The translations under genes and the position numbers were made by a program. The notes under the pieces were generated by a model that searched no databases, was not told the DNA's origin, and worked only from the letters and a program-made list of their open reading frames with translations. Of a stretch of DNA of 64,000 bases, positions 9,183-31,175 are shown one piece after another (the stretch's first letter is position 1; every line of letters begins with the position of its first letter). Source of the DNA: a virus; IMG/VR virus record IMGVR_UViG_3300042549_009011, positions 1 through 64,000 of that record; one strand, 5' to 3'.

Positions 9183-10778
9183 AAATTACGAACGATGCGG
9201 AGCGAAATACGCAGAGATCGACTAACAGAACGGAAACCCGTAACCCCTTGAGTATCAAGGGTTTCTATCTCCTACCACTTCACCTTTTTACACTCTACAT
9301 ACAGGTAACATACAGTATAAACATAGAGAGAGTATAGAGCAAAGAAAGAGGATGATGAAGATAATGGAAAATGGGAAGATTTGGAAAAGTGGATTCGCAT
9401 AATTATAACTCTTTTTAAATGATTTTTTAATATCTTACGCAATTTTTTTATACTTTAGCCAGTTTTATCTTGACAATCCTTTATATTATGTTACCTTTAC
9501 CCCCATGAAGAAAACGTTATCTTTCCTATTCGTAGCACTCCCGTTGGGACTGCTTCTCAGTCTTATCCTCGCAGTTATTCTTGGTACTGTGACATTTTGT
9601 CGCAGCTTTGCTGACTATTGGTCGTACATCATCGTACAATTCTTCCCTATGTATGGTATGCGAGATCGTGTAGAGGAGGAACAAGAGCCGCAAGAGCCAC
9701 AAGAGCAGTCGTCCATATGGGAAAAGCATCAGGCTAAGATGGATGCAAAAAAACGAGAAGAACCAAAAGACTAAATTACGAACGATTTTTGCCCAAATAA
9801 ACAAAAACAAATTACGAATTATTTTCGGCTAAATAAACAATTAAATTAAGAACGAAAATGAGCCAAATAAACGAAGGAACAAATTACGAACAAAAGATCG
9901 CCAAATATAAAGCATTTATTAAGGAGTTGTCTGAAGTGCAGGAACTCTACTACCAAAAACTCGTAGAGGAAATCAACATCAGTGCAAAAGACGAAGAGTA
10001 TTTGTTTGATTACATATACAACGCAGACTTTACAACTTTCGGAGATTACCTAGCGCAGTTTAATAAACAATAAAATTACGAACGATTTTGCCCCAAATAA
10101 ACAAATGAAACCTTACTATTATATAGACAGCGCAAATGCTAACGTACGCAGAAACAAACACCACACTTTAGAATCTGCGGTTAAAGGTGCAGAGTTTATG
10201 GCGGAAAGTTACCCTGGAATTAGTTTTGAAGTGTTACAAGTTGTAGCTATAAGCTCTACGCCGAAACCCAATGCCACAACCTTCTACTTGGATCGCGCGA
10301 CGGAATAAAAATTACGAACGATTTTTTTCTAAATAATAATAACTTAAATTACGAACGATTTTTGCCGAAATAAACAACGCGCAAGTATGGATGGATTATA
10401 CGAAATGTACACGACGGAGAATGAGTTTGCGCGAATTGAACAGTGCATCCGCGAGGCAATTTCCAAAGCTATTAAAGCTGGAGTGAATCCTACTGAGATT
10501 TGGCTGGGAGAAGTTGAGATGGCGACATTTCGGAAACATATAAAATTACAGTTTATTAATCATCGTAAAGCGAGCGAACAAATCTCGGAAGAAAATTTTA
10601 AATACGCTGACATGGAAGTAAGAGAATCCAAATCACAAGGAATCCGTGTTGGCGTGAGTTGGGTATCAAATACCAAAGCGTAATTACGAACGATTTTCTC
10701 CTAAATAAACAATATAAAAATATGACTGATACAAAACCAAATAACGAAATTACGAACGATTCTGCCCTAAATAATAAA
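9183..10778 (+). repeat. Ten copies of a ~32-bp direct repeat AAATTACGAACGATTTTNNCCNAAATAAACAA
   Basis: Copies start at 9183, 9773, 9809, 9843, 9881, 10073, 10309, 10346, 10681 and 10747. Confidence 0.9.
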
Positions 10779-15861: not shown

Positions 15862-16142
15862 AAACTTTTCGGTAACATGGTAAATAAGTCCTCTTCTCTG
15901 GTGTGGTGCTGGGGAAGAGGCGATTGCCAAAAGAATAAATGCCAAATAAATAAATTGTAAATAATAAAACTGCAAATAATCAATTGCTAAATAAATAAGC
16001 TCTAAATAAGCGAAGTGTGTATACATGGTAAATTTTTATGGTGGGGCGGGAGGTTCGCATAAAAAAGATTTTTTATTGCAGGGTGGGTCGCTCGCATAAA
16101 AAACTGTTAGAGTATTCTGTTAGAGTTTCTGTTAGAGAATAG

Positions 16143-16165
16143 ACCCCCCTCTTTCGAGGGGGGAT
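16143..16165. terminator. Hairpin at the convergence of + and - early transcription
   Basis: CCCCCCTC-TTTC-GAGGGGGG. Confidence 0.6.
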
Positions 16166-16261
16166 CACTTACGCCGTCACAAGAAAAGCATAGGCACGGT
16201 TTTCATCTCCACATTGCGGCAACCCCAAGGATAAACGCACAGACTAAGATTTCTGGTAAGC

Positions 16262-16960
16262 TCATACGGGTTCAAGAACAAAACCCGTTGCATCTTTTTT
16301 CGCTTTGCCTTTCTCGACAAGCCCGACGATGACGTTTTGAGGGTCGTTAAAGCGGAGGTCGCTTTCATCACCGCTCACAACACGCTTGCCTTTCCACGAT
16401 GCAGGAAGTTCGCCACGGAACACGACAGCGACGTTCCCACCGCTTGCAAGCACAGCGTCAACAAGTGCTTCATTGCTTTCGGAACGCGAGAACGTCAAGT
16501 GATAATTGGAAGGAAGCTCACCAGCAAGGAAAGCCGACATACGAGAAGCGTATTTCGTGTAGTCGTAGTATTGACATTGTGGGAAAAGTTCAAAAATGTT
16601 TTTTCCGTTAATGAGAACTTTTTCCCATGGAATGTCACTTGTGAGGTTTAAGCGAAAGCATGGAATCAAATTTTTTCTTTCCGCCGATTTGATTGCAGAA
16701 GTGATTTCTTTGACAAGCTGAGCCATGAACAAAGCCTTATCCTTAAAAAAGAATTTAGTTTTTTCGATTCGTGCATTTTGCACAGTCGAGAAGATACCAT
16801 GTCCAGCCGTGTTCAAGCAAGAATCGCCGCATCCAACGCTTGCGTGTTTGCAAGTGTTGAAGCCCGACAAGTTGGACGGAGCAAGATGAACGCCGAAGGT
16901 TTGGAAGCCGAGAGCCTCGCCTTTTTTAATTTTAGTGTTTGCAGTAGTTAGTAGTTTCAT
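16262..16960 (-). CDS. Gp88-like conserved phage protein
   Basis: RLNLTSDIPWE, YYDYTK, NYHLTFSRSE, GNVAVVF and GDESDLRFND motifs. Confidence 0.7.
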   Translation of the reverse strand: MKLLTTANTKIKKGEALGFQTFGVHLAPSNLSGFNTCKHASVGCGDSCLNTAGHGIFSTVQNARIEKTKFFFKDKALFMAQLVKEITSAIKSAERKNLIPCFRLNLTSDIPWEKVLINGKNIFELFPQCQYYDYTKYASRMSAFLAGELPSNYHLTFSRSESNEALVDAVLASGGNVAVVFRGELPASWKGKRVVSGDESDLRFNDPQNVIVGLVEKGKAKKDATGFVLEPV

Positions 16961-17001
16961 AACGGGGAAAAGTTAGCTGTTTCGAGTTGAGTTGTCAAGC
17001 A

Positions 17002-17352
17002 TTACCACCAAGAAGAATAGGCTACAATCAAACCATCAGCGATTGCAGCCTTGGCATCCTTGATGAATTTAAGGGTTTGCTCTTTTTGGTATTCGTCAAA
17101 GCGAGAATCTCCACCATAGAAGAAGCCTCCAGTTTCTGGAAGATTATCTCTGATAACGGCAGCCTCAAGATCATTGATATCATCGAGCGTCAAAACGACT
17201 TCAACGCAATTAAATTCACCCTCGCCGCCGTTATCGTGCCAGAGAGATTTCATCCAGCCTTGAAGTGCGTTGTGTTTCCGCCAATAGGCGAGTTCTTGAT
17301 GTTGTTCTTGTTGATTTGGTTTGCGTGTGTATGCGTACTGATCTAATCCCAT
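17002..17352 (-). CDS. Conserved phage hypothetical protein (MGLDQY...YWRKHN family)
   Basis: MGLDQYAY, ELAYWRKHNALQGWM, and a C-terminal YSSWW. Confidence 0.7.
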   Translation of the reverse strand: MGLDQYAYTRKPNQQEQHQELAYWRKHNALQGWMKSLWHDNGGEGEFNCVEVVLTLDDINDLEAAVIRDNLPETGGFFYGGDSRFDEYQKEQTLKFIKDAKAAIADGLIVAYSSWW

Positions 17353-17579
17353 AATTTTGTGTTGGTTGGTTACAGGGAAAAGATAACATTTCCTGCGAGA
17401 TTGTCAATTTTTTTCGATTAAAAAATAAATTAAAAAAAGACTTGACAACATCCCGCAAAAAAAACATTTGACAATTTTTATCTGGCGGCGGGGCGCTGGC
17501 ATAAAAAACTGTTAGAAAACTGTTAGAGAATTGTGCAAAAAAAACCGCCCCACTTTCGCGGGGCGGCTTGGGTTAGCGA

Positions 17580-18401
17580 TCAGTCGCGGAGATCAACTTC
17601 ACCCTCTGGGGCGTTGTCCTCGCAACCTTTCGTTACGATTTCTTGAAGCTCAAGTTGTGGCACGTGATGAGCGAGCTTGTCGAAGATGCTCTGCATCGTC
17701 ATCGTGCGGAATGGCAACTTGGAAAGATCACCGCCCTTGAGGTTTTCAGTTACGGCGTTGTAGAGATTCCACAACGTGTTACCCACGAAGTCAACGTGGC
17801 GGGGATTTTCTGAACCCTCCATGTGACGGCGGAACTCCACGACATTTGTGTAAAGGTCACGGGCTGGGATTGCTTTCGAGTCAACCAATCTCACAAGCAG
17901 ATTCTCAGCTTGAGCGGAGGAAATGAAAGTTTCCTTGTAGCGTTCAATACGCAAGCCCATGTCGTTCCAATGAGCGACAACGCGAGCCACAGCATCAGCG
18001 ATCACGCGAGGGAGATCAGCCAAGATGTTGAGAGTGTGACGGCGTGAGAGCTTCACATCAGACGAGAAGCAAAGATTTTCGCAAACCATCATGCGATTGC
18101 CGATGCAGATTGCGGCGGCGAAAGCCTTGTCATGGGAATTGCGAAGACCCAAAACGACTTGGCGATCCGTGCCGTCGATACCCTTGCCAGTGAGAGCGAA
18201 GCCGCCGAAGTAGCGAAGACCGCCACGGGCAAGCGAGTGTTCTTCCTCAACGATGGTCAGACCGACCGCCTCGATAGCTTCACGGGTAAGCTTGACGAGA
18301 GTATGGTGAGGAATTGGCATATGAGAATCGGTTGCTTCTGGAGTTTCAACACCCAAGAGTTGCTCGAATTGAACTTTGTTTTTTGCGATGATAAGTGACA
18401 T
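17580..18401 (-). CDS. DUF932-family protein
   Basis: LGLRNSHDK...GNRMMVCENLCFS...RRHT and TLWNLYNAVTE motifs. Confidence 0.75.
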   Translation of the reverse strand: MSLIIAKNKVQFEQLLGVETPEATDSHMPIPHHTLVKLTREAIEAVGLTIVEEEHSLARGGLRYFGGFALTGKGIDGTDRQVVLGLRNSHDKAFAAAICIGNRMMVCENLCFSSDVKLSRRHTLNILADLPRVIADAVARVVAHWNDMGLRIERYKETFISSAQAENLLVRLVDSKAIPARDLYTNVVEFRRHMEGSENPRHVDFVGNTLWNLYNAVTENLKGGDLSKLPFRTMTMQSIFDKLAHHVPQLELQEIVTKGCEDNAPEGEVDLRD

Positions 18402-18871
18402 ATTGTTATTTTCTGTTTTTAGTGGTTAAGAGTGCCTTTCGTGGCGACAAGAGAAAGATAGCATATCGTGCGAGTTTGTCCACACATTTTTATTTGTTTT
18501 TGCATTTTTATTTTTGCGGGAAAGTGAAAAAAACGCTTGACAACCCCTGGAAAAAACCATCTAACAGATTTTTATGCGGCGGGGGGACGCTAGGATAAAA
18601 AAATTATTTCTCTTCTTTTATCTCTCTTTTGCCGTCTCGCCTCACACGTTTATTTTGTGGGCGTTTCCAATCGCGCAAGTGCTTCCACCATTGGACAGTC
18701 TTCACAGATCCTTTGCCTTTACCTGCCGAAGCCATCGCGACATTCCTTTCTGCTTGCCTCTTTCTTCTTGTCCTTGAAGCGGATCACACAGGGAGGCATT
18801 GCGTGACGCACTAGGTTTCTCATGTCAAGGCTATTCTTTGAAAGTTCTTTGGGGGTTTTCTTTTTCATTTT

Positions 18872-19201
18872 TTAAATTGCGTAAGTTGTTCGATAAGCGA
18901 TTCCCATTTCTTTACACACTTGCTTAAAGACTTTGCCGTGAAAGTCATTTCTACCATTGACTTTGAATGTTCCGCCCATGCGTGAGAATTGGATGCAATG
19001 AGCAATCTCATGCAAGAGAACATATTTAAAAATGGAAAAGTTGTTTAAAACTATTTTGTTTAACTCAACCTTTTTTTCCCAAGGGTTAGCAAAACCAAGA
19101 GTTCTTTTAACGTGAGGATTCCAGTAGAGAGTGTAGTCATGTAAGCCGTATTGTTTAAAGGTTAGATGGGCGTATTGTTCGACTTCTTGTGTGGTGAGCA
19201 T
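18872..19201 (-). CDS. SprT-like zinc metalloprotease
   Basis: VLLHEIAH plus downstream HGKVFK. Confidence 0.75.
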   Translation of the reverse strand: MLTTQEVEQYAHLTFKQYGLHDYTLYWNPHVKRTLGFANPWEKKVELNKIVLNNFSIFKYVLLHEIAHCIQFSRMGGTFKVNGRNDFHGKVFKQVCKEMGIAYRTTYAI

Positions 19202-19250
19202 GGCAAAAGTTTAACTGTTTTAGGGATTGTGTCAATTATTTTTATTCTCC

Positions 19251-21817
19251 TTAACCGACTTCTTCTAGCATCTCTGGATTAAGCCATACAAATTCATTTT
19301 CTAAATGAGAAAGAATTGGGTAAACTCCATATTCTTTTTTGCCCGTATCTGTCCAGATTTCTCTTTTTAGAGTTTCTTCAAGTTTCTTTTTTAGTTTTTT
19401 TAACTTGGTTTCTGTCATTAGATACGAAGAATATTGACTTTGGTATTCTGTAGTATGCTCTATCTTTAATCGAAATTTTTTCATAGCTGCAAAAGTTTAA
19501 CTGTTTATTCTTCTGTGTCAATAGAAAGTTCAGAAGTAAAAAAGATTTCTCCGTATGATGTAACAAAACGATAAGATCCGTCTTGTAGTTCTGTGAAATC
19601 TTCCTGATTGTATAACAGGCTTTTTCCGATTTCGCTCATGATAACATCGACAGCTACTTCGTCGAGGTCGTCACGGGGAATGTCAATGGTTATTTTCATG
19701 GTGCTGTGGGATTTAGATTATTTGTTTTCCTCCAAGAAGTCAACAAAAGATTCTGCAAGATCAAAGATTAGTTCTTGCACATACCAATAAGGATCTTCAT
19801 TGCCAGCGGCTCTTTGAATCGCGTCCCAAATCAAAACTTTGTCTTGTTCGGGATGGTTTTCTTCGATAATAACAAGCGAAAGCTTTTCAGCGTCCCAGCT
19901 TTGATCCCAGCTAGAAAGGAAGTGGGAGGCAGCACGAAGAATTGCTTTTGCGTGAATCGGATTGCTTGTGTCGAGGTGATCAGTCATGCAAGGAACTTAT
20001 CATTTGAGAGTGCGAACGTCAACATTTTTTATTGATTATATTATTAATTAAAACACTTGACAAGATTGTGCCGAAAGCATCTAACAGATTTTTATCTCGC
20101 GGCGGGGCGCTCGCATAAAAAATTGAGGGGGCAGCGCATACCACCGCGCCACCCCTAATTCACCATGCCACAGAAATTATACGTGGAAACCTTCTTCTTC
20201 TAACACTTCAGCAACAGCTTCTTGTGCGATGTTGTAGAGTTCTGAGACGAGGGCAGTATCACCCTCCTCCTCGATGTATTCTTCCATAGCATCGAGTGCG
20301 TACATGACGCAAGGAAGATCTGGGAGGTCTGACATGGAAAGCCCACACAGATCGTAACAGGCTTGATTCATAATGGTAATGCAGCGTTTGCGGATGTTCA
20401 TAGTGGTAATTCTTTTAGAGTTTTGCGGGGACAAGGATTGTAATTTGCGTTTCTTCTCCTTCATTGTCAATCAAAAAAAGATTTGAACCGCTAACTCTCA
20501 CCATTTTGTTTTCTCCCTCTTGGAATTTCGCGCAGTATTCTAAGCCCTCAATATCCCAGCCGAGATAAAGAAATTCGTTTTCATCTGATCCGTTTAAATC
20601 ATCCAGACATGGAAATGTCAGGGTGTCGTCAATGATAATTGCAGATGCGTCTTGAATGATAGCAAAGGCTTCTTGTAAAGGTATGTATTTCATAGTGGCG
20701 ATAGTTTAATGTTTTTGGGGCGAGTTGTCAACTATTTTTAATCAAATGGCGGCAAATACTTTTTTACCATTTAAAATAACTTCTTCCGCGCGAAAAATAT
20801 CTTGATTTTTGCACTGGAACTGATTGACCTCATACGGATTATATCGCACGGATTGAAACCATTTATTAGATTGTAAGCTCGAAACCAACTCACCCAAGAT
20901 GTAGGCGTGAACGTTCTTTCTTTTTTCTTTGATTACTCTCTGGCGACCAGCCTGAGATACCTTAAAGCTTGCGTTGCGAAGATAAGCATCTTCTAGATGG
21001 CAAACGACTTTCCACCTTCCATTCACTTTCGCTTGAACGGAAAGTTTTTTCTTGTGGAGGTTGAAATAGATTCTGACTTGTTGATTGAGTGGTATCATGG
21101 CAAGAGAAAATTACACTGTGAACGCCAATTTGTCAAATACTTTTTTGCTAATAAGCTGTAAACGAGCTGCAAATAAATAAGCTGCAAATAAGAAATCGCC
21201 AAATAACGCTTGACAGGGGTAAATTTTTATGGTGGGGCGGGTAGTTGGTATAAAAATCTTTTTTATTCAAAGGTGGGGCGCTGGCATAAAAATCTGTTAG
21301 AGCGTCCGAGGTGTTCGTGTCAAGTATTTTTTTGGAAAAGGTTAGCGGGGAGAGCCACCACAACTCTCCCCGCTTTCACCATGCATCAGATCACCACATC
21401 TGAAAACGTAACGCTTGAAAACTTTTTGTGAATTGCTCCACACTTGAACTCAACCACCTTTTCAGGTTGGAAAGAGAACCAGCCTTTGCGGTTGCGGTCA
21501 ACGGCAGACTTGTAGCCAGCGGCTTTCAAGCCTTGAGTAGCTGGGTGATTTGAATTTCCTTTGACAAGATAATCGTAGCGGTTTTTCGCATTGATTGTGC
21601 GGAGAGTTCCGTCTTTCTTCTCGAAAGTGATAGAGAAGAATTTGCCTTTGGTTTGTTCGATGAGTTGGTCGATGTTTTGTTGCATAGTTTTTTTGTTTTG
21701 TTTTTCTTTACGAGAGTGAATGTAGAGTGAAATGCCACGGGTGGCAAGATAAAAAATAGAGAAAAGTGCTGGAATTGAGGCGACGACGAGGATGGAGTGA
21801 ATTAAGTTTTCTTTCAT
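19251..21817 (-). CDS. Monocistronic small early ORFs (19251-19484, 19505-19699, 19718-19987, 20177-20401, 20415-20693, 20742-21098, 21386-21817)
   Basis: Most are preceded by their own TTGACA-N16/17-TAANNT promoter; 20742-21098 (YFNLHK...RKNVHA) and 21386 (FFSITFEKKDGTLR) carry motifs common in phage hypotheticals. Confidence 0.7.
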
Positions 21818-22277
21818 GGTGGAGATAGTTTAATGTTTCAAGCGGGGTTTGTCAACTACTTTTTTGCGTATGCTTGAATGCAAGCGAGGCAGTAGCAGGT
21901 TGCCCCGAAAGTCAAGAAGCAAGCAACATCAAACAATTCATTTTTCCCGCCATAGACAGCGAAAGCACAAAGGCTAAAGGTTGGAGAGATGGTGATGATT
22001 GCGGAAGCGATGATGATAAGTGCGTGTTTCATAGTGGCGTTATTTTAGTATTTTTTGAAGATTAGTCAAGAAGTTTTTATTTCGATTGATCTCTTTCAAA
22101 TTTATAGCCATCTTCTTTTAAGGCTTTTATTTTATTATTAAAATCTTTTTCATCTTCAAAACGATATTCTTGTGCTGGGCGATCACCCAAGGCATAAGTC
22201 CAGATCATTAGGGTGTTGCTATTAGTAAAAAACCAGTGTGTTGTTTTCATAGTGTTGATTGTGGTTAATTTTAAAGA

Positions 22278-22535
22278 TTAGTCAAGAATAAAAACACCAT
22301 TGCCCATCATTCCTTCTCTGGATTTTTTGGTTGCGGTTGAAAGGATGTTTCTTTTTAATTCTTTTCCCTCGTTAGTAGATGGCACGAAAGAAAGAGTTTG
22401 TTTTATTTTATTAAGCGTTGCGTCGTCGCTACTAATGGAGAAGCCATCAATTTTCTTAATGAGCTTTGCGGCTTCAAGAAATTTTGGGATTTCAAGCGGG
22501 GCTTCTGATTGGAGTTTTTTTAGTTTGGCGTTCAT
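22278..22535 (-). CDS. Hypothetical protein, paralog of 23486-23746
   Basis: KLQSEAPLEIPKFLEAAKLIKKIDG vs KLQEQAPQEIPKFLEAAALIKKFDG. Confidence 0.75.
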   Translation of the reverse strand: MNAKLKKLQSEAPLEIPKFLEAAKLIKKIDGFSISSDDATLNKIKQTLSFVPSTNEGKELKRNILSTATKKSREGMMGNGVFILD

Positions 22536-22582
22536 GGGTGGATTGTGGTTTGTTTTGGGGTGGTTGTAAAGAAGAAAGTGAT

Positions 22583-22655
22583 CTTGTTGAGTGAGATTCG
22601 AACTCACCTTTTAGGGGGTTTAGCCCTTTGTCTTGTCCCCCTAGACGATCAACAA
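22583..22655 (-). tRNA. tRNA-like cloverleaf with AAA at the anticodon position and no encoded CCA
   Basis: TTGTTGA-TC-GTCT(AGGGGGACA)AGAC-A-AAGGG(CTAAACC)CCCTA-AAAG-GTGAG(TTCGAAT)CTCAC-TCAACAA-G. Confidence 0.7.
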
Positions 22656-22972
22656 GTTTTAGAAATTGATGGCATGTCTGAGGGATTTTACCCCGCCGTT
22701 ATTCTCGACTCTCTTAGCCAGTTTCGAGCGACTTTTTCTACTAGGGCGTTCCCTCCCTCGCATGAATACAAGTTACCATTTTTTCAGAAAAGCGCAAGGA
22801 TTATTTTAATTATTTTTTTCTAATATTTCTCTTGACATGGTAGGCGGGAAAGCATCTAACAGTTTTTTATCTGGCGGCGGGGCGCTCGCATAAAAATTCC
22901 ACAGCGTGTCAAGTGTTTTTATTGATTATTTTTGCGCGAATGTTTGGGGCGGCTTTCGCCGCCCCTTGTCCA

Positions 22973-23122
22973 TCAAACAAAGTCCAATGTCCCCAAAGGC
23001 ACTTCATCCTCTCGCCCATCTTCAAAACGAATCAAGGCACGATTTCCAGCGGGAGTGTGGACGACTTCGAGAAGTTCAACTTCACAGTCACAATATTTGC
23101 AGATTTCTTTTTCTTCGATCAT
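22973..23122 (-). CDS. 49-aa acidic beta-rich mini-protein (not in ORF track), paralog of 26689-26838 and 27720-27872
   Basis: MIEEKEICKYCDCEVELLEVVHTPAGNRALIRFEDGREDEVPLGTLDFV; own promoter and a downstream GGGGCGGC/GCCGCCCC hairpin. Confidence 0.7.
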   Translation of the reverse strand: MIEEKEICKYCDCEVELLEVVHTPAGNRALIRFEDGREDEVPLGTLDFV

Positions 23123-23485
23123 GGCAGGGAAAGGATAAGAGTTTTTCGCGGATCAGTCAAGAAAGAATTGCTTTTTCCAGACTGCATCTTGAACTTTTTT
23201 GTCAAGCCAAGACTGCTGTTCAAAGATTCTTGCGGTGAAGATGGATTGTTTTCTGGCGAATAGTTTTTTAAGTAGTTTCATAGCGGCGAAAGTGTAGGAT
23301 TTTCGGGGCGAGTTGTCAACTATTTTCTGTTTCTCACAGAATCAACTGTTCCATCAGCATATACTCTTACTGTATAAGCACTCGCTTTTGTTACATACAT
23401 ATGCCCAAAGGTAGTTTGTATTTTGTAGCAGCGGCTTAAATTAAACCATGCTTTGAGGTGAATCAAAATTATTTCTTTCATATTT

Positions 23486-26400
23486 TTAATCCATTAAAAA
23501 CATTCCATCAAACATTCCTTGGCGGGATTTTTCCTCTGCTTTGATTAAGATACCCTTCTTCAACTCTTTGCCCTCTTTGGTTGAGGGAACAAAAGAAAGA
23601 AGTCTTGTGATCTTGTTCAGATTCTCCACATCAGAAGAGATCGACATTCCATCAAACTTCTTTATCAATGCGGCGGCTTCTAAGAACTTGGGGATTTCTT
23701 GTGGTGCTTGCTCTTGTAGTTTTTTCAGCTTTTCTTGTTGGTTCATGGTGCGAAAAGGATAGCGTTTTTTTATTGTTCTGTCAATCTTTTTTCTTCAAGA
23801 TAACCTTCAAGAAAGGAAATTTCTTGTTCGATTCTTTCACAACCTTGCCAATCTGAAAAGTCTTCACACATTTCAAGTTGGCGGCGTAGTTTGTCAATGA
23901 CGATGATGATTGATGCGGTGGACATATGTTTTTTATTAGGTGGAAAGATTAAACTTTTTTTGGGGATATTGTCAACAGTTTTTTATTTTTTGCGCTGAAA
24001 TTAAATCCGCTGAAGTTAAATAAAAACTTGACAAATACATCTAACATTTTTCTAACAGTTTTTGTAAGTGATTGAGCGCCAACGACTTACGCGCGGCGCG
24101 GGGGGCGCGGCGCGTAACTCGCTGAGTATCAACGAGTTACGAGAATTCAATTCCACTCCTCGAAGATGAGCTTGCCATCGCGCTCAAGGCGATAGCAGTC
24201 CATGATCGGGCAACCCTCGACACCCGTGAGAGTGGTGACGGAAACGCCGCCGAAACCGCAAGCCTGTTTAGGGCTTTTGGAAAATCGGGTGACAGTGTAA
24301 GTGCCAGAGTCCCAGTTGCCCCCGCAGGAAGGGGGGTTCTGCATATAGGTGATGTGCGTGTGCTTATACATGACGATTAAGATGTGTTGATTTTAAATTG
24401 AAGTCAAAGAACTGGTTGATGCGGTTGTCGAGAATCCCAAAAACATTAAAAAAACTTTCAGGAATTGGGTCGGGCGTGGATGCGTGAATCTCGTCAGCGA
24501 TTTCGTCCATCACGCGGCAGTATTCTTCGTATTCTTCGGGGCAGCTTGGGTAGGTGTCGGTCATGGGCATATTATACCCACAAAGCAGAGATAAAACCAA
24601 GCTTTATTTTCATATTTTATTTTTTATTTTTTTACTTATTTTCTTGACAGAATCGGCTTTTATGGTATAGAGCGCGATCACATAAGTCGTTGAGTATCAA
24701 CGAGTTACGCGCGGCGGGGGGCGCGGGGCGCGTAAGTCATTGAGCGTCAACGACTTACGGCTTTTCCCAAACGAAAGACTTTTCTTCGGGATCGTTGGGC
24801 TTGAGATTCCAACGATAGAAAATCTTATTTTCTAAACGTGTTTCTATCAGATAATTGTTAGAAGTTCTGTTAGGTGAAGAAGCAACCCAAGCTGTTAGAG
24901 CCGCTTGCATTTCTCGCATTTCTGCGAAAGGTTTATATCGTGAATCGTTTTCCATTTTGTGGGTGATTATATAAGTTTTTGTTTTGTATAACTATTTTTG
25001 AATACCGCTGGCGTGTAAACTCTTTTGGATAGCAAACATTGAAGATCGTATCTTATGGAAATTTTGAAATCATTCACGCTCTCAACAGTAGCGACTCGCT
25101 TTGTATTATTATTAAACCATAAACTGCCGACTTTGATCTCTAATGGATTGCAGATCGGGGCTTGTTTGGAAATGGTTTTGCTAGGAAAAATTAGTTGTCT
25201 TTTCATGCTCTTATTATACTAGGTTTTTCTTATGCTGTAAAGTGAGAAAAGAAACTTTCTTTTGCTTCACTTGTGGCGGTTTCTTTCGCGTCAAATTCTT
25301 CTCTTGAAACTTCTTTGACTCCATCGAGAGAATGAAGAAAAGTTTTGTTTGCTTTGTTTGAGGTTCTCGCGAAGCAATGCATCTCTGGAAATGGATTGAT
25401 TCCTAAGCCAAGGTAAATGCCTTTGTTTGTAGTGGTGTTTGCTTTCATGTCTTTAAGATAGGGTTTTTTCAGAGAAACGCAAGTTTTTTTTCGATTTGTT
25501 TTTCTCTGCGGATTTTGCGGAGGGTTTCGAAAGCATCTTTTCTTTCTACGATGAAAGATTGTGCGGAATAATCAGTCACAAAGACTGAGAAAACTACTTG
25601 ACCTTGATTCTCTTTTTTACCCTTTGGAGTAGAAAGGGCGAAACGATTTGTGGTGTAGCGTGTGCGGGTGGTTTGACGTTCGATTTGCATGGGGAAAGTA
25701 TAGTTTAAAAAGGGTTTTGGTGCAAGGTTTATTTTGCTTTTTTATTTTTTATTTTTAGACTGGTTGAGCAAAGTTCATGAGGAAACCTAGGTCTTTGAAG
25801 CGATCAGAGTGACGAGCAGGGATGCAACCATTTTCATGTAACATTCTGCAAACATCACCTTGGATGCTTTGAACTTTCATGATTCTTCCGCTTACGCGAA
25901 CTTTCATGCCTTCAGTGATTGTGATTTGTTTTTCGTTTTTCATGCCCAAAGTATAATCAAAAACCCGCTTTTCCGCAAGAACTTTCTGCATAAAAAAGCA
26001 TTTATTTTTCACTTTTTATTTGAAGAAAACGCTTGACAGAATTCTCTAACAGCCATCTAACAGTTTCTTTTTGAGCTTCGTAAGTCACTGAGTATCAACG
26101 ACTTACGCGCGGCGGGGGGCGCGGGGCGCGTAACTCCTTGAGGCTCAACGAGTTACGGGGCTGAATTATTTTTATTTTTTTTTCTTTACATTCAACCCGC
26201 GATCTTGCGAAGCATCGCACTTCCGCGATACTCAAGAATTGTTAGACCATAGCAAGCGATGAAGAAAAGCGAGCCTGTCGCGACAAAGTAAAGATCTTGA
26301 TTGAGGCAACCATAGAAAGCAACGATTACACCAGTGAGGAAGTAAGCAATGACAGTGAGGGCGATGATCCAGTTTTTGATGATGTATTTATTGATTTTCA

Positions 26401-28319
26401 TATTTTTTTAGTGTGTGTGAGTTGGTGAAGAGAGTGTGGTATATTCGGGGCGAGTTGGCAAGATTTATTTACAGATAATTTTTGACATTATTTCTTGCTT
26501 CGTCCAGATGTTCCGAATCATCAATTTGATTTAAAACGGCTTCTTTTATTTCGGCAATCATTGCGTCAAAATCGTCTACGCAAAATTCTAAATGGCGTTT
26601 GCCTTGGCAATAGCCGCTGATAATGTTTTTTATTTCGTCTTTCATGGTGGTAATTGTAGAGATTTTTTAATGGTTGGCAAGGATTATTTTATGCACTTTC
26701 CAATTCTGACAGATGAACTTCTTTTTCCTCTCCATCGTTGAAAGAGATGAAGGCGGTATCGTCAAAGACTTCTTCGATGATAACGAGTTGGTTATGGTAG
26801 ATTGCGTATTGAATGTGCGATGTGGTGTTTGCTTTCATGTAATTAAGATACCCGATTTGATCGAAACCGCAAGAAAAAAAAAACGTTTTTTTATTTATTT
26901 TTTTCTGAAGAAAACGCTTGACAAGATGCGGCACAAACCATCTAACAGCATTCTAACAGTCTATGTAAGTCACTGATACTCAATGAGTTACGCGCGTGGG
27001 GGGGCGCGAGGCGCGTAAGTCGTTGAGGCTCAACGAGTTACGCTTACGCTTTAGACTGGAAAGCCTTCCTCTTCTAACAGTTCCACGACAGCATCTTGGG
27101 CTATGTTATAGAGTTCACTTGTTAGAGCGTTATCACCCTCCTCTTCAATGTATTCCTCCATCTCATCGAGAGCATACATGACACAGGGAAGGTCAGGCAA
27201 GTCAGAGAGAGAAAGCCCTGACATGTCAAGGCAAGCTTTATTCATGATGGCAAGGCATTTTTTGCGTGTGTTATCCATAGTGGTATTGTGTTAGATGTTT
27301 TCTGTTAGATCGCTTTTCTGATTGTAAGACCCCAACCTGTTAGAGTTTTGAATTCATAACTAGGCGGGATTATCGGAAGAGGCACGGCTTCGGCTTCGTA
27401 CCATTCCCCATTTATCACCCTGCCGCCATTAAAGCGGATCGTTTGACCATATTGCGGATAGCTTGAAGCATTGCTCGCAATGATACCCTTGGGCGGTTTG
27501 TCGCCATAGGCGTTCGCTGGCGCGTGTCTTGCGCGTTTTGCGCATTCTTTTTCCGTCCATATCTCTTGGGGATGAGTGTAAGTTTTCATTTCTGTTAGAG
27601 TGTGGAGACGATCCAAGCATTGGTAATGTAAAGCGTGAATGCGATCATCAAACCGAAGGCGAGGAACACAATGATGTTTTCGAATGTTTGCATAGTTTTT
27701 TCTGTTAGATGTTTTTCTGTTAGGCTACAAAGTCCAAGGTGATCAGAGGAACTTCTTCTTCTCTTCCGCAATCGTAAGAGATAAGAGCAAGTGTGCCGTA
27801 GTCTGTTGCATAAATTTCGAGAACGATCACAGGCATTCCACAGTAGTTAGCGAATTCAATTTTTTCTTTCATGGCTTTAGTGTATTGGATTTGAGGTGTG
27901 TGTAAAGATTTATTTATGCTTCAAAGCGAGAAAAGAAACTTTCTTTAGCTTCTGCTATGGCGTTTTCTTTGGCTGTAAACTCTTCCAAAGAAATTTCAAT
28001 GATTCCGTTGAGAGAGTCAAAGAAAGATTTGTTCGCTCCGTTTGAAGTCTTTGCGAAGGCGTGGAGAGTTGGGAATGGATTGATTCCTTTGCCAAGGTAG
28101 ATTCCGAAGTTAGTTGCGGTGTTTGCTTTCATGTCTTTAGAGTAGTAGATTTTTGCAGAAACGCAAGATTTATTTTGCGAAGATAGATTTATTTTTAAGG
28201 CTGTTGAGAAGAGCCATTGTCTTTTCATGCTCTTTCTTTTCTTGCTCACGCTTTGCTTTCGCGTCTGCAATGATCTTGTCGAGAGTAGGGAATTGGATAG
28301 TGGTGAATTGATCTTTCAT
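23486..28319 (-). CDS. Distal small early ORFs (23486-23746, 24147-24371, 24364-~24570, 24755-24955, 24967-25206, 25230-25448, 25469-25690, 25755-25943, 26192-26401, 26689-26838, 27051-27278, 27305-~27589, 27720-27872, 27914-28132, ~28170-28319)
   Basis: Co-directional; many have TTGC(A/G)N-N16/17-TANNNT promoters 6 nt before ATG; includes paralog pairs. Confidence 0.7.
24064..27041. repeat. Four 77-bp elements: 27-bp palindrome + 23-bp GC spacer + 27-bp palindrome
   Basis: 24064-24140, 24682-24758, 26080-26156, 26965-27041; half-site consensus GTAAGTCRYTGA-N3-TCAAYGASTTAC. Confidence 0.92.
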
Positions 28320-30494: not shown

Positions 30495-31175
30495 ATGTCA
30501 AACTACACTTACGAAGACAAGTCAAGTGAGCTTGAAGAGATATTGTCAAAATATAGATCCAAGTGGCAGCTAGACGCTTTAGCTTGGCTTGATTACGATG
30601 ATGTCTGCCAAATCATAAGAACCCATATTTGGAAGAAGTGGCATCTTTGGGACCAAGATAGACCATTTAAACCTTGGGCTGCAATGGTCATATCTCATCA
30701 GATGATGAATCTCGTTAGAAATAATTATTCCAACTTCGCTAGACCGTGTTTAAAATGCCCATTCTTCATGGGTGCTGATGGTTGCAGTTTCACTAAAAGT
30801 AAAATACAAGACTCTGAATGTGAAATTTTTGCTAAATGGCAAAAGAAAAAAGAAAAAGCTTATAATTTAAAACTCGCTCTACCTATTGAAGATGGTAGCA
30901 ATCTTGGTGAATGTAGTATAGAAGATGAAATAGATTTTGATAAAGCCCAACACGCCTTACATAAAGCTGTTACATCTCAACTAAGCGGTAAGCATTTGGA
31001 AATATATAAACTTCTTTTCATAAAGAATATGGAAGACTCTGAAATAGCTGAAATATACGGCTTCAAAAAAGATTCTTCTAAAAGAAAAACAGTAAGATAT
31101 AAACAATTATGTAATCTTAAAAAGAGGTTTTATGAGATGGCGAAAAAAGCCTTACAAGAACAAGATATTTTATGA
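30495..31175 (+). CDS. Phage sigma70-family (probable late) sigma factor with Cys-rich insertion
   Basis: Region 2-like DYDDVCQIIRTHIWKK...FKPWAAMVISHQMMN and region 4-like HTH (LSGKHLEIY...EIAEIYG). Confidence 0.65.
   Translation: MSNYTYEDKSSELEEILSKYRSKWQLDALAWLDYDDVCQIIRTHIWKKWHLWDQDRPFKPWAAMVISHQMMNLVRNNYSNFARPCLKCPFFMGADGCSFTKSKIQDSECEIFAKWQKKKEKAYNLKLALPIEDGSNLGECSIEDEIDFDKAQHALHKAVTSQLSGKHLEIYKLLFIKNMEDSEIAEIYGFKKDSSKRKTVRYKQLCNLKKRFYEMAKKALQEQDIL

Follow-up and report, generated by a model that had tools for sequence, protein, structure and literature searches.

Promoter-shaped units without a usable −10 hexamer, directed at hairpin elements in the early region of a lake-water phage

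Architecture of the early region

We analysed a 64,000-nt stretch of phage DNA (the window) belonging to a 147,748-bp phage record; this stretch is present in 24 runs, all of them lake-water DNA metagenomes. The early region carries small variable genes, a repeated unit with the shape of a promoter, an 8-bp box that occupies the −10 slot of this unit, and elements of 33 and 77 bp toward which the units point. A phage sigma gene lies further along the + strand.

16104–16136, − strand: three boxes with 12- and 13-bp period and no −35, lying beyond a terminator hairpin and directed at two 33-bp elements (16034–16101)
17509–17527, − strand: two boxes with 11-bp period and no −35, located after a terminator (17542–17569) and facing a 33-bp element (17476–17506)
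18537–18567, + strand: unit 1 (cTTGACA, 17-bp spacer, box TCTAACAG)
18569–18601: 33-bp element (TTTTTAT, G-rich 19-bp core, ATAAAAA), 1 nt past unit 1
19994–20022, − strand: back-to-back early promoter TTGACG-N17-TAAGTT, 6 nt from the ATG at 19987 (leaderless layout)
20057–20087, + strand: unit 2
20089–20121: 33-bp element past unit 2
21294–21323, − strand: unit with a 16-bp spacer, facing tandem 33-bp elements (21261–21291 and 21225–21255)
22832–22862, + strand: unit 3
22864–22896: 33-bp element past unit 3
24028–24058, + strand: unit 4, with a second box, TCTAACAT, within the spacer (24040–24047; 11-bp period)
24064–24140: 77-bp element, starting 5 nt past the box of unit 4
24644–24671, + strand: ancestral-type unit TTGACA-N16-TATAGA, 10 nt before the next element
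24682–24758: 77-bp element served by the ancestral-type unit (TATAGA rather than the box)
26033–26063, + strand: unit 5, with two boxes (26045–26052 and 26056–26063)
26080–26156: 77-bp element past unit 5
26918–26959, + strand: unit 6 together with a second box 11 bp downstream (26952–26959)
26965–27041: 77-bp element past unit 6
27289–27723, − strand: six sense-strand boxes among small genes
30495–31175, + strand: phage sigma-70-family gene

According to the preliminary description, six TTGACA-N17-TCTAAC sites on the + strand lie back-to-back with − strand early promoters and directly before a 33-bp or 77-bp element, and additional CTAACAG boxes form clusters. This picture is borne out. All six sites are present (units 1–6), against 0.02 expected on the + strand of the window (shuffle mean; shuffle maximum 1), and the gap between unit and element is 1 nt for the 33-bp and 4–16 nt for the 77-bp type. 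Early promoters on the − strand stand back-to-back with the units, as exemplified by 19994–20022, which is separated from unit 2 by 34 bp, −35 to −35. CTAACAG occurs 26 times in the window (5.96 expected) and clusters where it had been placed; the site at 9222 is CTAACAG only.

The full record contains 10 units with the 17-bp spacer, exclusively on the + strand, and the one extra unit with a 16-bp spacer on the − strand. Two of the 10 are contained in a 99.6%-identical duplicate of 18608–23281, and two more adjoin a diverged (89%) copy of 17577–18543. An AT-rich tract lies upstream of the −35 of each unit. As a yardstick, we used the sigma-70/sigma-A housekeeping promoter consensus. By this standard, the −35 hexamer is a perfect TTGACA in 10/10 + strand units as well as in the − strand unit, and the spacer falls within 17 ± 1 bp (17 bp in 10 units, 16 bp in one). 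TCTAAC has a C at both −11 and −7 and thus lacks the TAnnnT pattern of a −10 hexamer.

A comparison of four lake DNA runs gave joints that mostly correspond to the paralogous copy at 141.9–147.7 kb and to element-associated repeats. Among the 40 variants listed, none falls inside the six units; a further 92 rows lie beyond this listing, and we draw no evidence from it.

The 77-bp element is widespread among uncultured phages and consists of a GC hairpin flanked by two 27-nt hairpin palindromes. As RNA, the 33-bp element folds no better than shuffles, and an Rfam scan of 15–29 kb matched neither element, returning one tRNA and two sub-threshold chance hits. In the phages that carry the box (the box clade), the 77-bp and 33-bp hairpin elements have no U-tract in either direction. 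Relatives carry a T-tract at the far end of the element, and box presence anticorrelates with U-tracts adjoining the 77-bp element. Hairpin mismatches, used as a test for the RNA strand, amount to 28 G-U versus 17 A-C, with contigs disagreeing. A scan of bacterial genomes for the hairpin pattern was rejected as evidence on the host, since palindrome matches are expected by chance; the matches were mostly ordinary A-run/hairpin/T-run terminators beside tRNA genes (Bacteroidota, Fibrobacter and others).

Conservation and orientation of the units

In the relatives that we compared, the terminase is ~78% and a common early protein ~61% identical. Spacer sequences drift in these relatives, with −35, box and 17-bp spacing retained; the loss of spacing that had been named beforehand as evidence against a functional site is not observed. 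No cultured relative was found by DNA, by the sigma or by a 380-aa ORF of the late region, and the terminase is only 24% identical to those of Bacillus and Clostridium phages.

An unbiased survey of the flanks of the 77-bp element in >100 phage contigs reveals a TTGAC[AT] peak exactly 32 nt ahead of the element (55 flanks); in the box clade, the peak is located 30 nt before it. Units of the 32-nt class, which belong to box-less lineages, are composed of cTTGACA, N16 and a hexamer starting with TA (TAWRRR), and their AT-rich upstream tract is T-rich distally and A-rich proximally. T(−12)A(−11) is retained across this wider family, and a TG lies upstream in many of its units. T(−7) is found in 0/63 units of the 32-nt class versus 174/195 gene-driving promoters in the same contigs, which indicates that the melting-poor −10 was selected and has not simply decayed. 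The crippled −10 is thus a selected trait across the family, and TCTAACAG is the version of the box clade. Reread as TAACAG, the box matches the TAWRRR class, but with a poor spacer of 19 bp.

These comparisons also bear on the possibility that the units are mere recombination cassettes, copied around like the PeSLs of T4-type phages and carrying a functionless odd −10. The units are repeated promoter-plus-hairpin modules among small variable genes, and metagenome contigs break and join at the elements, as one might expect of cassettes. Nevertheless, the spacers are wholly different between copies, yet −35, box and the distance between them are exact; the constraint is common to phages whose shared proteins are 61–78% identical, and the bias against T(−7) is systematic. 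We therefore regard this explanation as most improbable.

Relative to the early genes, 24 units are antisense and 8 are sense (32 units with a clear local gene strand). L050, a syntenic relative, likewise has the units antisense and running in the direction of the sigma/terminase cluster. The earlier interpretation, in which such sites are either RNAP-holding decoys or roadblocks or else promoters switched on by a phage factor to give antisense RNA, is supported in part: the units are promoter-shaped and have no usable sigma-70-type −10, their shape is selected and their antisense orientation kept. The part that finds no support is the sigma at 30495 as the reader of the box.

The box and its candidate readers

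TCTAACAG occurs 29 times in the record, nearly always within 16–27.7 kb and 140–147.7 kb, and is restricted to the early regions. The box is directional and always points toward the following feature at a short fixed distance. A 77-bp element has its first purine 4–5 nt away and a 33-bp element follows after 1 nt; for the ATGs at 27693 and 27278, and for one ATG in contig L269, the distance is 8–9 nt. One box lies just 2 nt ahead of an ATG (27592) and is thus too near for a start site ahead of that ATG. Two TAA stop codons fall inside boxes of the 27289–27723 group. Among ~50 element-proximal boxes of the box clade, TTGAC is located at exactly N17 in 22, at N16 in 1 and at N18 in 0, and the −35 is missing for about half. 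Boxes without a −35 form arrays with a period of 11–13 bp as well as palindromes (GTTAGA-n-TCTAAC); this layout is more suggestive of sites for a transcription factor that binds duplex DNA than of a −10 element. A leaderless ORF starting from an ATG within TTTTTATG was considered and rejected, as the ATG is present in only some copies. We found nothing relevant in the literature on this 8-mer or on freshwater actinophage promoters.

The preliminary description had put forward the phage sigma at 30495–31175 as a candidate reader of CTAACAG. The encoded protein belongs to the sigma-70 family, with a Pfam match to region 2 and a C-terminal helix-turn-helix-like tail, and a two-domain sigma might account for a bipartite site. 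However, region 2 is nearly invariant between the box-clade phages G000 and L050 and the box-less phage G001, which has a sigma of 55% identity, no box enrichment and different sequences ahead of its 77-bp elements. Motif and sigma specificity thus do not co-vary across the relatives, and the restriction of the box to early regions likewise speaks against this sigma. We therefore judge that it is not the box reader and consider it very unlikely that it reads the units. A better candidate for its motif is GTGTAA-N8-9-ATG, which precedes late genes of this phage (portal, protease, tube and tape-measure) and is found in G001 too. As for other readers, a search for clade-specific early genes yielded only small acidic proteins with no DNA-binding domain (24364–24600, 20177–20470 and 27051–27278) and hence no candidate.

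The box might also be the duplex site of a DNA-binding protein that serves as an orientation-dependent operator or terminator factor, like the stoperators of mycobacteriophage L5. Bound beside a hairpin, such a protein would stop polymerase arriving through the hairpin, and at the units it would silence a weak antisense promoter. The invariant 8-mer, the phased arrays and the palindromes are consistent with this idea, and the box aims inward at hairpins from one or both sides, ordinary terminator hairpins included. The anticorrelation with U-tracts beside the 77-bp element points in the same direction, and the variant boxes TCTATCAG and CCTAGTAC of other lineages fit a co-evolving protein and site. 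Early genes match the Pfam families L5 gp82 and GP88, and the conserved cTTGACA of the units equals the TGTCAAG half of the L5 stoperator. On the other hand, a site that lacks a −10 offers a repressor no evident promoter to act on, the reading does not account for the exact 17-bp distance to the −35, and the number of boxes overlapping gene-driving early promoters is 0. A search of the phage for a repressor-like or winged-helix gene found none: the early ORFs tested contain no repressor-like domain, and WhiB and OmpR/PhoB-type winged-helix domains are absent. We consider this reading unlikely, though still a serious rival. A Pho-box-like reading of the 8+3-bp repeats finds no support.

Proposed function and comparison with known systems

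We propose, with a probability of roughly 40%, that the units are factor-dependent antisense promoters that are read with the help of a putative additional protein. From their architecture, conservation, orientation and family-wide loss of T(−7), we infer polymerase binding, a helper, a start site and a transcript as follows. The unit would be a docking skeleton for RNA polymerase in which the −10 slot is occupied by the clade-specific 8-bp TCTAACAG. The host primary-sigma holoenzyme would dock there while the DNA stays closed, so that firing would be conditional on a helper able to read the box. This putative helper may be a phage sigma-like or sigma-remodelling protein other than the sigma at 30495. 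The RNA would begin at the following hairpin element or a few bases ahead of it, carry a 5′ hairpin, be antisense to the preceding early operon and run toward the sigma/terminase cluster. A long antisense RNA is possible in the box clade, where no T-tract follows the element; the T-tracts of relatives would leave RNAs of only ~90 nt.

Alternatively, the units could be sites at which RNA polymerase parks without firing (a decoy, roadblock or insulator), docked via the −35 and the AT tract with no opening. Sitting head-on past the hairpin of the upstream operon, the enzyme would block read-through, or would feed or boost the back-to-back early promoter. The exchange of both melting bases in the box clade and the family-wide absence of T(−7) agree with such a role. 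So does the location of the units, which immediately follow the upstream operon and stand back-to-back with the promoter after it: 36/106 units have a divergent leaderless promoter within 160 nt, with the −35s mostly 30–59 bp apart. Furthermore, the box-clade hairpins, having no U-tract, could need help with termination. Yet the retention of T(−12)A(−11) across the family and of an upstream TG in many units suggests that opening is wanted, and the far-side T-tract of relatives looks as if it terminated RNA made by the unit. Parking also leaves the −35-less boxes unexplained, and a strict N17 to an invariant 8-mer exceeds the needs of a trap. We regard it as a less likely but still serious alternative to factor-dependent antisense promoters.

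As a tentative generalization, a large group of uncultured aquatic phages may carry dedicated melting-defective promoter skeletons, with a full upstream and −35 docking signal and no T(−7), back-to-back with an early promoter and aimed at a conserved triple-hairpin element, the −10 slot being an 8-bp box in one clade. Phage takeover of host transcription is known from few cultured models; here, a conserved and selected promoter class, predicted to be bound yet unopened by the host polymerase, is found in >100 uncultured phage contigs. A box reader that supplies or replaces −10 recognition, with region 4 of the host sigma still bound to the −35, would amount to an inverted form of sigma appropriation, a type of promoter reprogramming that is not known to have been described. 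Were the sites never to fire, they would represent the first elements dedicated to parking polymerase as insulators. Either a new reprogramming of RNA polymerase at −10 recognition or a novel type of insulator of transcription would thus emerge, and the units provide a compact test system, with a 31-bp site, two point changes predicted to restore melting and an 8-bp box as bait. For annotation, promoter scans that score the −35 and spacing alone will miscall such sites.

T4 middle promoters (MotA/AsiA) keep the −10, have the −35 replaced by a phage box and fire once the phage factor is present. They and the units are both hybrids that combine one host-sigma element with a phage-specific box in place of the other, but T4 replaces the −35 and the units replace the −10. 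In addition, no MotA- or AsiA-like gene was identified in this phage, and its boxes also form arrays without a −35. We know of no system that swaps only the −10 while retaining the host −35. T4 late promoters have the 8-bp TATAAATA at −10, which is read by gp55 and works without a −35. The box resembles it in its length of 8 bp, its place at −10, its occurrence with or without a −35 and, as proposed here, its reading by a phage factor; T4 late promoters, however, serve late genes genome-wide, whereas the box is found only in early regions, in most cases with no gene to drive.

The PeSLs of T4-type phages comprise an AT-rich tract, a sigma-70-like promoter and a stem-loop, and are repeated between genes; their promoters have a canonical −10 and are directed at the downstream gene, with a Shine-Dalgarno sequence present (PMC2839356, PMC4122927). 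Our units are likewise intergenic modules of a promoter joined to a stem-loop, repeated among the small variable genes of the early region. They do not have the form of a functional promoter aimed at a downstream ORF with a Shine-Dalgarno sequence: they have no usable −10, and they point toward the hairpin and not toward the gene next to them. The early genes beside them have their own promoters 6–9 nt from the ATG in a leaderless layout.

The stoperator sequence resembles a −35. In cluster A mycobacteriophages (L5 gp71), stoperators are asymmetric sites that recur many times in short gaps between genes, orientation-dependent and tied to the direction of transcription; they are single 13-bp sites for the monomeric repressor of a temperate phage (PMC9283540). 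The units, too, are asymmetric, repeated and intergenic, and they show a correlation between orientation and transcription (24 antisense versus 8 sense; 10/10 N17 units on one strand), the comparison extending to the existence of such a correlation. Unlike stoperators, they consist of two parts spread over 31 bp, lie for the most part antisense to the genes and are in every case accompanied by a hairpin element.

Units and boxes in the early region

All six TTGACA-N17-TCTAAC sites of the preliminary description are in place on the + strand of the window (shuffled sequence gives a mean of 0.02), and the clustering of CTAACAG that it noted is borne out, with 26 copies against about 6 expected, grouped where it had named them. 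Each site, here called a unit, combines a consensus -35 with the 8-mer TCTAACAG (the box) in the -10 slot. The phage record, whose opening 64 kb form the window, measures 147,748 bp and is present in lake-water metagenomes; a search for a close cultured relative found none. Across the record as a whole there are ten units, every one of them on the + strand. The full 8-mer is present 29 times, with hardly any copies outside 16-27.7 kb and 140-147.7 kb. Since the spacer sequence is wholly different from unit to unit, the repeats are evidently not recent copies. Two related sites are also found in the window:

21294-21323, - strand: extra unit with a 16-bp spacer
24644: TTGACA-N16-TATAGA in place of the box, before a fourth 77-bp element

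Two of the ten units lie inside a 99.6%-identical duplicate (4675 bp) of 18608-23281 near the record end, and two further units adjoin a diverged copy (89% over 968 bp) of 17577-18543. As a whole, this segmental duplication pairs window 17577-23281 with record 141906-147652. The record is classed as linear, without end repeats; the duplicated segment may represent a second early region that has diverged, or else terminal redundancy left unresolved.

The - strand carries the genes at 16-28.3 kb. Early promoters there (window 16000-28300) have the form TTGACA-N16/17-TAnnnT, stand only 6-9 nt from the ATG and lack a Shine-Dalgarno sequence, a leaderless layout seen in 195 further cases in related phage contigs. 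The units are placed back to back with these promoters, as previously described: every + strand unit occupies a gap between two - strand transcription units and backs onto the promoter that follows (34 bp separate the two -35 hexamers at 20057). The described pairing with 33-bp and 77-bp elements likewise holds, each unit aiming into one hairpin element. The 33-bp element consists of TTTTTAT, a G-rich 19-bp core and ATAAAAA, and starts 1 nt past the box; the 77-bp element (E77) is a GC hairpin between two 27-nt palindromes, usually 4-5 nt past the box. E77 is predicted to fold far better than shuffled sequence, whichever strand is taken (z -4.8 to -7.1); no such excess is seen for the 33-bp element, and Rfam has a match for neither.

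Several other features mark this region. A 15-bp periodic repeat (15932-16024) codes for the N-terminus, hydrophobic and built of five-residue repeats, of an ORF whose start is at 16026, and a decayed copy without an ATG follows a double 33-bp element (21225-21291) at 21159-21221. The lone tRNA gene of the early region (22582-22656, - strand; tRNA-Phe, anticodon AAA; ARAGORN, and Rfam tRNA at 42.9 bits) is oriented opposite to the remaining four. Early genes 20742-21098 and 16262-16960 (- strand) match Pfam Phage_L5_gp82 (E 4e-31) and GP88 (E 1e-48), and these matches alone hint at a connection with actinobacteriophages.

Box-bearing relatives and the wider E77 family

We collected box-bearing relatives by an exact-pattern scan of IMG/VR for contigs with several units. 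Contig L050 is syntenic with the window phage (terminase 78% and sigma 64% identical), and L039 has one early protein in common with it (61% identity). Both contigs, along with L021, L047, L058 and L061, retain the -35, the box and the 17 bp between them despite altered spacers; the preliminary description had counted a loss of this spacing in relatives against its interpretation, and no such loss is seen here. The L050 units run antisense to small early genes and in the same direction as the sigma/terminase cluster. Among about 50 element-adjoining boxes in phages whose units carry the box (the box clade), TTGAC stands at exactly N17 in 22, at N16 in one and is absent in 25. Several of the relatives' boxes without a -35 follow a terminator hairpin or form palindromes (GTTAGA-n-TCTAAC).

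When the hairpin arm of E77 alone was used as the query and the promoter was ignored, at least 117 stretches matched. TTGAC(A/T) peaks sharply 32 nt 5' of E77 (at least 55 flanks) and, in the box clade, at 30 nt. The 32-nt class, to which the window site at 24644 belongs, has the order T-rich tract, A-rich tract, cTTGACA, N16, TA(T/A)(G/A)G(G/A), A-rich stretch, C.TC and E77. As a control, we took gene-driving promoters of the same contigs (TTGAC(A/T), N16-18, a TA-starting hexamer, and 5-10 nt on an ATG that opens an ORF of 50 codons or more). Of these 195 promoters, 174 have T as the sixth base of the hexamer, versus none of 63 E77-facing units, a contrast that marks the -10 without T(-7) as, on sequence grounds, a selected property of the E77-facing class. 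TCTAAC, which lacks A(-11) as well, is the box clade's form of this -10.

For units whose surrounding genes have a clear strand, the count is 24 antisense to 8 sense. Of 106 units, 36 have a divergent leaderless promoter no more than 160 nt away, the gap between the two -35 hexamers being mostly 30-59 bp. E77 of the 32-nt class is preceded by an A-tract and often followed by a T-tract, like a bidirectional terminator, and RNA made from the unit would then be about 90 nt long. Both tracts are absent from box-clade E77.

E77 occurs widely among uncultured phages 100-170 kb in size (L103, L123, L126, L150, L175 and more than 100 other IMG/VR stretches). Many copies have an inward-pointing unit on either side, often TTGACA-N16-TAWRRR, so that convergent promoters enclose a bidirectional terminator. 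The genes to either side share one orientation and have promoters of their own.

Possible action of the units

In opening the -10, sigma flips out A(-11) and T(-7); region 4, together with the alpha subunits, binds a consensus -35 with a spacer of 17 bp and AT-rich DNA upstream. Since the units carry the full docking signals and lack the melting bases, host holoenzyme would be expected to dock at them yet fail to open the DNA. A helper reading the box would let the unit fire as a conditional promoter, and the RNA launched would be capped by a hairpin and run antisense to the early operon before it. The box has a direction and keeps a fixed short distance to whatever follows, whether an ATG, the 33-bp element or the first purine of E77. 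Together with the strict 17-bp link to the -35, this appears promoter-element-like, not operator-like, and our preferred reading, a tentative one with a probability of about 40%, is therefore a conditional promoter that depends on a helper to read the box and yields such antisense RNA.

Boxes lacking a -35 also occur in the window:

16104-16136: three boxes, 12-13-bp period, after an ordinary terminator hairpin, facing 33-bp elements
17509-17527: two boxes, 11-bp period, after an ordinary terminator hairpin, facing a 33-bp element
27289-27723, - strand: six sense-strand boxes, the last box 8-9 nt 5' of two ATGs

At 27289-27723, two of the TCTAACAG boxes contain TAA stop codons and one is translated as Thr-Leu-Thr-Gly; coding sequence is therefore interleaved with boxes among three small ORFs. 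In another lineage, L269 (2740-2870) has seven variant boxes (ATCTATCAG, TCTAACC, TCTAACG) with a 9-13-bp period, after a 77-bp-like element and with the last box 8 nt before an ATG.

Arrays, palindromes and boxes without a -35 would be better matched by a duplex-binding protein, and they keep two rivals to the conditional promoter alive. The units may be polymerase parking sites that never fire and serve as roadblocks or insulators, which we consider unlikely. Slightly less probable again is a stoperator-like, orientation-dependent terminator or operator factor binding the box; it would also explain the loss of U-tracts beside E77 in the box clade, and stoperators do act orientation-dependently (PMC9283540). 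Pure PeSL-type recombination cassettes (PMC2839356) were rejected, as they leave the constraint pattern of the units unexplained.

Candidate readers and known systems

For the helper of a conditional promoter, the preliminary description had proposed the phage sigma-70-family protein encoded at 30495, which has a region 2 Pfam match and a helix-turn-helix-like tail. The interpretation given there is partly supported; the assignment to this sigma is not. G001, a 108.9-kb relative, encodes a sigma 55% identical to it; box enrichment was looked for in G001 and not found, and other sequences precede its E77 elements. Because region 2 is almost invariant among the three phages compared, G001 included, this sigma does not explain a -10 element found in one clade only. 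The better candidate for its target is GTGTAA-N8-9-ATG, which precedes the portal, protease, tube and tape-measure genes and is present in G001 too; in the late region, these sites have AT-rich DNA upstream and no -35. GTGTAA lies 8-9 nt before an ATG at:

Window 35084, 37127, 44765, 47858
Record 95108, 95374, 99288, 105407, 107898, 110446, 121234, 138301

WhiB and OmpR-type domains were sought in the phage and are absent. The early genes confined to the box clade encode small acidic proteins, in which no DNA-binding domain was found:

20177-20470, 27051-27278 and 24364-24600, - strand: small acidic early proteins, two of them paralogs

Most box-clade contigs contain homologs of these three, against none or one (38% identity) in the box-less contigs sampled. 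No Pfam domain was found in them, and they could be sigma-binding or DNA-mimic proteins.

The papers searched contain no description of the unit arrangement. The closest systems include PeSL cassettes and L5 stoperators, and the units lack defining features of both. T4 sigma appropriation is also close, but defining features of it are likewise missing, the roles of the -35 and -10 being exchanged in the units.
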